The notes below the pieces were generated by a model. The model made no database searches. It was given only the letters and a program-made list of their open reading frames with translations, and had not been told where the DNA came from. Positions 1,035 through 3,795 of a DNA stretch of 64,000 nt are shown piece by piece. Numbering within the stretch: the first letter of the stretch is position 1; each line of letters begins with the position of its first letter. The DNA comes from Candidatus Marinacidobacterales bacterium (GTDB lineage: Bacteria > Acidobacteriota > Vicinamibacteria > Marinacidobacterales > SMYC01): contig CBDCYI010000009.1 in assembly GCA_965224085.1 (NCBI GenBank), positions 576,001 through 640,000 of the forward strand, read 5' to 3'. The translations under genes were made by a program, and so were the position numbers.

Positions 1035-1200
1035 AAGTAGACTCCGATCGAGTGCAGCCGGGAGTCAAGGCCGAAGGTACGATGGTGCTCAGTGCCCGTT
1101 TGACAGCAAGGTCTGGAGGGTTAGCGGGAGTATCCGTGGTGGCATGTCGCGAGGCATGACCCCGTTCGAAAGAATGTTTTGAATCGCCCCTCTCTCCTGG
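1035..1200 (+). ncRNA. Candidate bridge RNA of the IS110 element
   Basis: About 250-bp non-coding left end with a hairpin (GACTCC/GGAGTC) and two internal-loop modules containing GGTAC + TTTGACAG (target matches) and TCGAAAG (donor right-end match). Boundaries approximate. Confidence 0.6.
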
Positions 1201-2647: not shown

Positions 2648-3284
2648 ATCACGGTTTCCTACGAAGCGATCCGACTTTGGTGCATCAAGTTCGGGCCGGA
2701 ATACGCTCGGCGACTGAAGCGTCGGCAGGGTCGTCTCGGTGACACGTGGCACCTAGACGAGGTCTTCATAAAGATACAAGGTGAACGCCAATACCTCTGG
2801 CGTGCGGTAGACCAAGATGGTGATGTAATTGATATCCTCGTCCAGCCTCGTCGTGATCGGAAAGCCGCGAAACGATTCTTCCGCAAGCTGTTGAAGGGGC
2901 AAGGCCGTCCGCCCTGGCAGCTGGTCACCGACAAACTGAGAAGCTACAGTGCCGCTCACCGCGAGGTCATGCCGTCCGTCGTCCACGACACTGACCAGTA
3001 CAGAAACAACCTAGCCGAAGTCTCGCACGAACCGACGCGACAACGGGAACGACAGATGCGGAAGTTTAAAACTCCTGGGCAGGCGCAACGATTCTTGACC
3101 GTGCACGGACTCGTGCAAAACCTCTTTCGCGTCGGACGGCATTTGTTGCAAGCGCATCATCATCGGGAGCTACGAGACCGCGCTTTCATCGTCTGGCAGG
3201 AGGTAACCTGTGCCGTCCGATGAGAGCAAAGGAAGTCAGCTCGACGCGATAGGTTCGCTCGCTCAACGTCAACTTGACAATATT
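2648..3284 (+). pseudogene. 5'-truncated IS6 transposase (to 3223) with its right IR
   Basis: Nearly identical to 54648-55352 from ITVSYEAIRLWC onward; WHLDEVF and VTDKLRSY motifs; IR TCAACTTGACAATA at 3269-3282. Confidence 0.9.
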
Positions 3285-3795
3285 CTTCCATGCAATATGA
3301 AAGGCGATGAACGTCTTGCCCGTGCCCGTCGCCAGCGTGAGCAGGATGCGATCTTTCTCGGCGGCGATTGCCTCCATCGCCCGTTCGATTGCCAGGTCCT
3401 GATAATAGCGTGCCTGGAAAAATCCTCCCCTGTCCTCAAAAGGGACAGTGGCAAAGCGGTCCCGCCAGGCGTTTGCTTCGGCGAAGGTCAGGTTCCACAG
3501 TTCTTTGGGGGAAGGAAATTGAAGGACTTCGCCCTCCGTCCCCTCCTTCATGTCGATGCCGTAGATGCCCTGGCCGTTGGTGGAGTAGGTATAGCGGATG
3601 GCGAGCTTCCCGGCGTAGCTCTTCGCCTGCCCGACCCCTTCGGTCAAAGGCTTGTCCCAAGCCTTGGCCTCCACCACTGCCAGTTTGTGGTTGCGATACA
3701 CCAGGACGTAGTCGGCTATGTCCGGCTTGGCCCGCTTCCCGTGGCCTTCGATTCGGCCCAGCGTGATGTGATACTCGCGCAGGATGCGGCTGCCT
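3285..3795 (-). pseudogene. hsdR: Type I restriction R subunit (EcoEI-like) N-terminal fragment
   Basis: REYHITLGRI...ADYVLVYRNHKLAVVEAK nuclease motif, RYYQ, LLTLATGTGKT Walker A; truncated by IS6. Confidence 0.85.

Follow-up and report, generated by a model that had tools for sequence, protein, structure and literature searches.

A probable bridge RNA with reversed guide order in the left end of an IS110-family element from a Candidatus Marinacidobacterales bacterium

Bridge RNAs and seekRNAs are, to our knowledge, the only known guides that program a recombinase for both partners, and they are under development as genome-writing tools. Here we describe an element of the IS110 family of insertion sequences (ISs), located at positions 973 to 2643 on the + strand of a 64,000-nucleotide (nt) stretch of contig CBDCYI010000009.1 from a Candidatus Marinacidobacterales bacterium, whose left end very probably encodes a bridge RNA. 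The whole stretch is referred to as the window, and coordinates are those of the window; published systems are compared as they are presented in the text of the cited articles. In the IS621 system, the CT core forms part of both guides (PMC11208160), the 3' guide is succeeded by a handshake guide of 2 nt, and the second T of the core is near-invariant, the first base less so (PMC11208158). In seekRNAs of the IS1111 group (ISEc11, ISPa11 and ISKpn4), the top-strand match lies 5' of the bottom-strand match (PMC11187229, section 9). Transposases of the IS1111 group are given as 330 to 350 amino acids (aa) long, and those of an IS110 subgroup as 395 to 455 aa (PMC11187229). Covariance models predicted a bridge RNA in 85.7% of the IS110 elements and 93.0% of the IS1111 elements of ISfinder (PMC11208160, section 12), and a later preprint, from 2026, describes 86 bridge-RNA models over 32,190 loci (10.64898/2026.10.21.760802, section 8), a set that may include the variant found in the window.

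The bounds of the element were taken from an alignment of all its ends in its own genome. All 10 left junctions read ...TTGACAG/CAATGG and all 11 right junctions ...TCGAAAG/TACC; past these junction words the flanking DNA of the copies diverges, and position -8 of the left junctions is variable (C, T or G). Since the junction words are shared and the flanks differ beyond them, we conclude that the element spans 973 to 2643, or 1671 bp counting one copy of the core, and that the junctions assumed in an earlier sequence-only reading of the window are real. Besides fragments, seven full-length places are found in the genome at 100% identity, including the window copy. In the window, the 2-nt core AG is present at both junctions (971-972 and 2642-2643). 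The left target half CTCAACTTGAC and the left core copy occupy 959-972, the right-end donor word TCGAA and the right core copy occupy 2637-2643, and the right target half TACC follows at 2644-2647, all on the + strand. As read from the aligned ends, the target is ...TTGAC-AG-TACC and the circle junction ...TCGAA-AG-CAATGG.

The recombinase gene (1222-2610, + strand) is preceded by an AGGAG at 1211-1215 and encodes, from the ATG at 1222, a DEDD transposase of 462 aa with the domains DEDD_Tnp_IS110 (PF01548, 5.7e-25) and Transposase_20 (PF02371, 2.3e-8). It scores 259 bits, against a cut-off of 140, with the NCBIfam model NF033542 (IS110 family RNA-guided transposase), and its similarity to the solved IS621 recombinase is distant (E = 1.2e-5). 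The left end before the ATG measures 249 nt and the right end after the stop codon 33 nt.

Scanning one genome per species yielded 53 related loci with transposases 39 to 53% identical to that of the window. (One element in the sets of relatives, locus L105, comes from an unpublished genome, G049, and our conclusions are independent of it.) The same RNA scaffold was observed upstream of most of these loci. Its first module consists of a closing stem, CCG, 8 to 9 variable nt, TGGTGC, a loop, CCCG, 6 variable nt, AG, 2 nt and a TGGTC that closes the stem; the second is built in the same way and ends in CCCG-T-N5-AG, so that the 3' strand of both modules reads CCCG-N5/6-AG. A covariance model, R1, was built from a 24-sequence alignment with a consensus fold showing compensatory changes. 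In the window it matches 1059-1204 on the + strand at 90.9 bits, on the same strand as the transposase gene and ending 18 nt upstream of its start codon. Across the element's own genome, R1 finds 9 copies at 90.9 bits, one remnant at 79 bits and, at 26.7 bits, a second IS110 type in 9 copies. When 150 other genomes were sampled from the phylum, 14 contained matches, and R1 also matches, at 78 to 80 bits, elements on plasmids of Dinoroseobacter shibae and Bradyrhizobium, whose annotations say only "IS110 family transposase".

Fold statistics on 46 distinct sequences showed that this structure is conserved. Standard pairs fill 90.1% of the pair cells, compared to 74.2% in shuffled alignments and at most 46% when the partners are slid, and the covariation score of 0.405 (0.159 for shuffled alignments) was reached by none of 500 shuffles. 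The consensus fold comprises five helices, in which 14 of 20 pairs show changes on both sides. In helix 1, which belongs to the target-binding loop described below, 96.9% of cells are paired and 4 of the 5 pairs have changed on both sides; in the donor-binding loop, to which helices 3 to 5 belong, columns 105/184 pair as C-G in 19 rows and as U-A in 14. G-U predominates at three pairs (41, 40 and 29 rows), and the RNA is therefore read from the + strand.

Each module carries words that correspond to the junctions of the element. The target-binding loop (1068-1114, + strand) is closed by the helix AGGCC/GGTCT (1068-1072 and 1110-1114) and contains an inner hairpin at 1084-1096, composed of GGTGC (1084-1088), TCA (1089-1091) and GTGCC (1092-1096). 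On the 5' side of this hairpin, the guide GGTAC (1076-1080) complements the core G plus the right flank TACC, which holds in all 11 copies of the element; on its 3' side, the guide (T)TTGAC-AG, or TTTGACAG (1099-1106), is identical to the left flank plus core. The target loop consequently fits both target strands around the core dinucleotide, one by identity and one by complementarity. The donor-binding loop (1124-1177, + strand) has a closing helix at 1124-1126/1175-1177 and an inner hairpin at 1137-1163, with CATGTC at 1143-1148, GCGA at 1149-1152 and GGCATG at 1153-1158, followed by the 3' guide TCGAA-AG (1166-1172), identical to the right end plus core. Both 3' words follow CCCGT and end in AG. 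Every motif given in the sequence-only reading was found where that reading had placed it. Its interpretation of the stretch as a guide resembling a bridge RNA, with one loop for the target and another for the donor, is supported by the conserved structure and by the covariation of guides with junctions.

That reading had also cautioned that matches of this length could arise by chance, but the matches exceed chance: the words sit at variable positions of a conserved scaffold, and in each relative these positions agree with the junctions of that relative. To control for circularity, each guide was scored against the matching zone of every element, cognate and non-cognate. The donor 3' guide (N5 plus core) was found perfectly matched just past the transposase stop codon in 23 of 26 cognate pairs, compared to 8 of 630 non-cognate pairs. 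For the target 3' guide, at least 5 of 6 bases plus the core matched the upstream zone in 19/33 cognate and 69/1056 non-cognate pairs, and for the target 5' guide at least 5 contiguous complementary bases were present in 7/31 cognate and 3/920 non-cognate pairs, with three copies in the genome G120 providing a clean case of complementarity to the right flank. The covariance analysis of related left ends that had been suggested as a check of the bridge RNA proposal thus yielded both a conserved fold and cognate-specific guides. In genomes with several copies, the ends can be set without reference to the guides; there, the left flank plus core recurs as the 3' word of module 1 and the right end plus core as that of module 2. 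CAWIKA, CAWDTG, G120, G042 and G015 agree on both words. On sequence grounds, there is a strong case that the variable positions of the 3' words act as guides tracking each element's own left flank or own right end. The CCCG-N5/6-AG rule in both loops would make the prediction of targets and ends trivial for hundreds of unannotated elements.

Two further observations concern the core. The dinucleotide CA that follows the AG of the target loop (1107-1108, + strand) repeats the two bases with which the element begins. The corresponding dinucleotide (CA, CG, CC and TC variants) agrees with the left end (LE) at both bases in 15 of 19 elements, compared with a composition expectation of about 0.35, which is a hand estimate. 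The dinucleotide after the AG of the donor loop fits the right flank poorly, for example AA versus TA in the window's element. The clade of L028 and L029 has AA as its core, in the two loops as well as at the two junctions. On the other strand this AA core becomes TT, and it thus fits the IS621 rule on the two core bases.

Because of the conserved two-module fold, the guides that track their own junctions, the 5' target strand complementing the right flank and the handshake-like dinucleotide, we consider it very probable that 1059-1204 is the bridge RNA of the element. This RNA may also include a 5' stem-loop starting at about 1002, ATCGGAG...CTCCGAT (1002-1048, + strand), which is predicted by the minimum free energy (MFE) and centroid folds only and lies outside the covariance model. 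An RNA produced from this region would be bound by the recombinase and would pair with DNA through its two loops, the target loop (1068-1114) reading the insertion site and the donor loop (1124-1177) the element's own end. The CA after the AG would act like the handshake guide of IS621, fitting the first two bases of the element, and the recombinase would exchange strands at the shared dinucleotide, which is AG in the transposase sense and CT on the other strand.

Compared with IS621 (PMC11208160, PMC11208158), the general plan is the same, as far as the text of those articles describes it. The left end encodes the RNA ahead of a DEDD recombinase gene that has the same orientation; the RNA has two pseudo-symmetric internal loops, each made of a closing stem, a guide, an inner stem-loop and a second guide; in each loop, AG closes the 3' guide and precedes a 2-nt position that may correspond to the handshake guide; and the core dinucleotide, common to target and donor, is CT on one strand, with the T-equivalent invariant and the C-equivalent variable. 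The guides, in contrast, are swapped relative to the gene. In the transposase sense, the top strand (left flank and right end, respectively) is repeated in the 3' guides, whereas the 5' target guide is its complement, so that the 3' guide is identical to the flank by the RNA-encoding end and the core reads AG in the gene sense. This order, reversed with respect to the IS621 order as given in the published text (PMC11208160), was found in the window's element and in every relative examined, in agreement with what had been proposed from the sequence alone. Read on the other strand, the core becomes CT, the 5' guide equals the left half on that strand plus C, the 3' guide complements CT plus the right half, and the handshake-like dinucleotide stays in the same place. 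The 3' guides are also long here (5 to 6 nt plus core) and the 5' target guide short (4 to 6 nt), for the terminus we detected no 5' guide in the donor loop, subterminal inverted repeats of 6 to 10 bp occur, and the recombinase has 462 aa compared to 326 to 328 aa. What sets the element apart from IS621 is therefore how the recombination site is oriented with respect to the genes for RNA and transposase, together with the long 3' guides. We found no internal control with the IS621 order among the IS110 types of the element's own genome: the 363-aa type has an IS1111-like layout, and the ends of the 487-aa type are unclear. A left-end-encoded bridge RNA would accordingly be able to sit in either polarity relative to the recombination core, and this polarity would determine which strand of the element is exchanged first.

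The suggestion that the reversed order marks a distinct programmable subtype was sustained only in part. The order is indeed the reverse of that of IS621, but the same order has been published for IS1111 seekRNAs (PMC11187229), and the other strand presents the IS621 arrangement. The system of the window is thus of a known kind and not a new kind of system. It could then be asked whether it should be classified, under the same general mechanism, as an IS1111-type seekRNA system with its non-coding region upstream rather than as an IS110/IS621 bridge RNA with flipped polarity. As in ISEc11, ISPa11 and ISKpn4, the segment complementary to the top strand (GGTAC, 1076-1080) precedes the one complementary to the bottom strand (1099-1106), and rare IS1111 members with an upstream non-coding region are mentioned in the same text (PMC11187229, section 6). 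The element also has a subterminal inverted repeat, with a left copy GACTGAC at 1008-1014 that is the reverse complement of the right copy GTCAGTC at 2632-2638 in the right end (RE; both given on the + strand). Its 7 bp compare with the 7 to 17 bp described for IS1111, and inverted matches of at least 6 nt, with repeats of 6 to 10 bp, were found in 16/16 elements compared to 14.7% of non-cognate pairs. Placement of the repeat in these elements is asymmetric, however, always about 31 to 39 nt inside the left end (LE +31..+39) and 5 to 13 nt inside the right end (RE -5..-13). In IS1111 elements, moreover, the RNA and the long non-coding region lie downstream of the transposase gene, and the short seekRNA carries target matches only (PMC11187229). 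The transposase has 462 aa, compared to the 330 to 350 aa given for IS1111 and the 395 to 455 aa given for the IS110 subgroup, and it shares 33% identity over 443 aa with the 428-aa type of the same genome, which has the same scaffold, compared to 28% over only 125 aa with the element of that genome that has an IS1111-like layout. We therefore regard the IS1111 assignment as improbable. The clade apparently mixes traits, since the upstream RNA and the large recombinase (428 to 475 aa in the clade) are those of the IS110 subgroup, whereas the guide order and the subterminal repeat are those of IS1111. Features that otherwise separate the two groups, the position of the RNA on one side and guide order with subterminal repeats on the other, are combined here, which bears on how the groups diverged.

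Other members of the family offer partial parallels. IS4321 and IS5075 target the inverted repeats of transposons (title of reference 10 in PMC11208160), comparable to the targeting of the ends of other mobile elements by the element of the window. The IS110-type ISEc21 likewise has an upstream non-coding region and targets a conserved sequence inside another IS family (PMC11187229, section 12), but it has its guides ordered as in IS621, the bottom-strand match coming first and the top-strand match 3' of it, and has a 358-aa transposase (PMC11187229). ISPpu10, also of IS110 type, has a bridge RNA that targets a repeated genomic sequence, and a DNA stem-loop near its recombination site aids recognition (10.64898/2026.03.19.712850). 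A possible parallel to that stem-loop is the GC-rich hairpin CGCCCG-GG-CGGGCG near the left end of our element (981-996, + strand, MFE fold), in the place of which relatives have, by eye, a comparable GCCCG...CGGGC palindrome; in ISPpu10, however, the stem-loop is in the target and not the donor, the core is CT in the gene sense, and the guide order is that of IS621. In the published texts that we searched and read, figures and supplements aside, we found neither a left-end-encoded bridge RNA with the IS1111-type order nor a bridge RNA of the large-recombinase IS110 subgroup, and these searches yielded no paper joining the term "bridge RNA" with IS900, IS901, IS117, IS116 or IS1110. The reversed arrangement may already be shown in Extended Data Fig. 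10c or Supplementary Table 5 of Durrant et al., or in Fig. S12 of the 2026 preprint with the 86 models.

A more radical alternative to a bridge RNA is that the left-end words are subterminal copies of end and target that the transposase binds as double-stranded DNA, with no guide RNA involved. In its favour, the words repeat the left flank and the right end without change and on the same strand, the two ends are linked by a true inverted repeat, and transcription is not firmly shown. Nevertheless, the helices beside the words keep pairing by compensatory changes, with G-U pairs that are sensible only in + strand RNA, and the 5' target guide is complementary rather than identical, as expected for an RNA pairing with two strands. 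According to the texts of PMC11208160 and PMC11187229, every tested member of the recombinase family is RNA guided. We thus consider recognition at the DNA level alone to be very unlikely. That the region is only a structured 5' leader regulating translation of the transposase, with 5- to 8-nt matches arising by chance, is strongly disfavoured and hardly credible, since, even though the region abuts the ribosome-binding site and start codon and the single-sequence fold of 973-1222 is only modestly above shuffles (z = -2.19, weak alone), chance cannot yield either the cognate donor-guide matches seen in the relatives or a core that changes together in both loops.

Observations on expression speak partly for and partly against a bridge RNA. 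Parts of the element are present in four metatranscriptome runs from one sponge study, and three of these runs contain contigs covering 1058-1346, 1080-1313 and 1039-1234, respectively. A transcript that extends from the RNA region into the transposase gene would agree with these contigs, which count in favour of the RNA, but they are no proof of one, since strand and ends are not shown and, at a depth of 2 to 4 in a single study, DNA carry-over is possible. None of the four RNA-library runs has contig cover over 978-1038, from which we draw no conclusion. Several other observations weigh against a bridge RNA. Promoter and terminator scans of 850-1300 returned no sites and no sigma-70-like promoter, and a hexamer scan of the computed RE-LE junction gave nothing spanning the junction, the best match (8/12) lying wholly in the left end. 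Scanning 800-2800 against Rfam 15 at E values up to 10 revealed no family matching the RNA, with only two chance-level matches elsewhere (SNORD66 and Atu_C7), although Rfam 15 may hold no bridge-RNA family. Among single-copy relatives, the target 5' guide fits the right flank in only a minority, and the constancy of TACC in the copies of our element may partly reflect targets that are copies of one repeat family, as is the case for 7 of the 10 empty sites described below. Finally, at the left terminus no partner could be detected for the 5' strand of the donor loop, so that one of the four guide-DNA contacts known from IS621 is missing.

This 5' strand of the donor loop, GGAGTATCCG (1127-1136, + strand), was compared with all ends and flanks. 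For the window, a weak match of CCGTGG (1134-1139) to the left-end word CCATTG had been proposed as the donor guide; we rejected it because CCGTGG overlaps the scaffold motif TGGTG (1137-1141), which is near-invariant in relatives whatever their left end. Over 29 relatives, neither complementarity nor identity of the strand to LE[1-16] was enriched (1/29 each), identity to RE[-30:] was found in 3/29 cognate and 69/798 non-cognate pairs and complementarity to it in 0/29, and matches to the left or right flank numbered 0, with no enrichment in either polarity. An earlier version of these tests, based on the longest common word, was negative or marginal. Of the two strands of the RE-LE junction that the donor loop would have to pair with as left and right donor guides (LDG and RDG), the 3' strand of the loop thus matches its own and the 5' strand does not. 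In the window, the strand is by eye 9/11 identical to RE 2624-2634, which is not general among relatives. More widespread, in about 8 clades, is a same-strand resemblance to the LE segment just outside the left copy of the inverted repeat, with a score of at least 6 in 9/29 cognate compared to 30/798 non-cognate pairs; this resemblance is weak in the window's own element. Drawing on it and on the universal inverted repeat, we considered that a single DNA strand may be paired by the donor loop on both of its sides: the right terminus would be contacted by the 3' guide and the internal LE segment by the 5' strand, with the repeat copies forming a stem that joins these two regions. Such an arrangement seems doubtful, and recognition of the donor as a folded single strand or cruciform, which it would entail, is to be taken as equally tentative; it would represent a different mode of end recognition for an RNA-guided recombinase.

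The reconstructed 11-mer target TTGACAGTACC has 10 unoccupied occurrences in the element's own genome, 7 of which lie at the end of one repeat family and share the same longer end, indicating that the element seeks out the termini of other insertion sequences. The window copy interrupts an IS6-like transposase gene at its 5' end (PF13610; 956-972 and 2644-3223). By eye, the ATG at 956-958 and the sequence through 972 join 2644 onward in frame, and the target word lies in the first codons of this gene. Directly left of the target repeat is an integrase-core (rve_3) transposase fragment (454-867, - strand), and the first 3.3 kb of the window as a whole are a pile of IS fragments. An open reading frame at 3186-3701 (- strand), with a helicase/restriction-subunit-like N terminus (GTGKT in the translation), is truncated at the IS6-like element.

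The second IS110 type of the same genome, with the 428-aa recombinase (C4:28146-29228 and 8 other copies), shares both the RNA scaffold and its polarity with the element of the window. It inserts at TTGTCA-AG/TTGA, which is the repeat targeted by the window's element, read on the other strand (859-872 and 958-971 in the window). One RNA-library contig follows 857-966 of the window and then continues into sequence resembling the reverse complement of the right end of this 428-aa element. In total, the genome contains 61 matches to IS110-family elements of at least five coexisting types, with open frames of 363, 428, 475, 487/496 and 417 aa, and the layout of the 363-aa type consists of a short left end and a long right end.

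The clade ranges over Acidobacteriota, Chloroflexota, Alphaproteobacteria and other phyla, including plasmids of cultured Dinoroseobacter and Bradyrhizobium. Members of the subclade with the AA core (C9:848957-849099 in the element's own genome, and L028, L029, L106, L134 and L135) insert after A-runs, reading ...AAAAAA/CC. The flanks of L028 and of the remnant in the element's own genome resemble IS3-family orfA, and the D. shibae copy lies beside ISDsh1; this subclade may thus target the A-rich slippery site of IS3 elements. On Dehalococcoidia chromosomes (L024 and L025), the right end of one element directly abuts the left end of another, and L025 is bordered on its left by an L023-type element's right end, indicating tandem or nested insertions beside the ends of relatives. 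In the 14-copy element of G015 (L113, L122, L126, L128, L130 and L132), the sequence of about 18 nt bordering each copy on the left is nearly the same as the right end of the element itself, and its target therefore resembles the right half of the donor.

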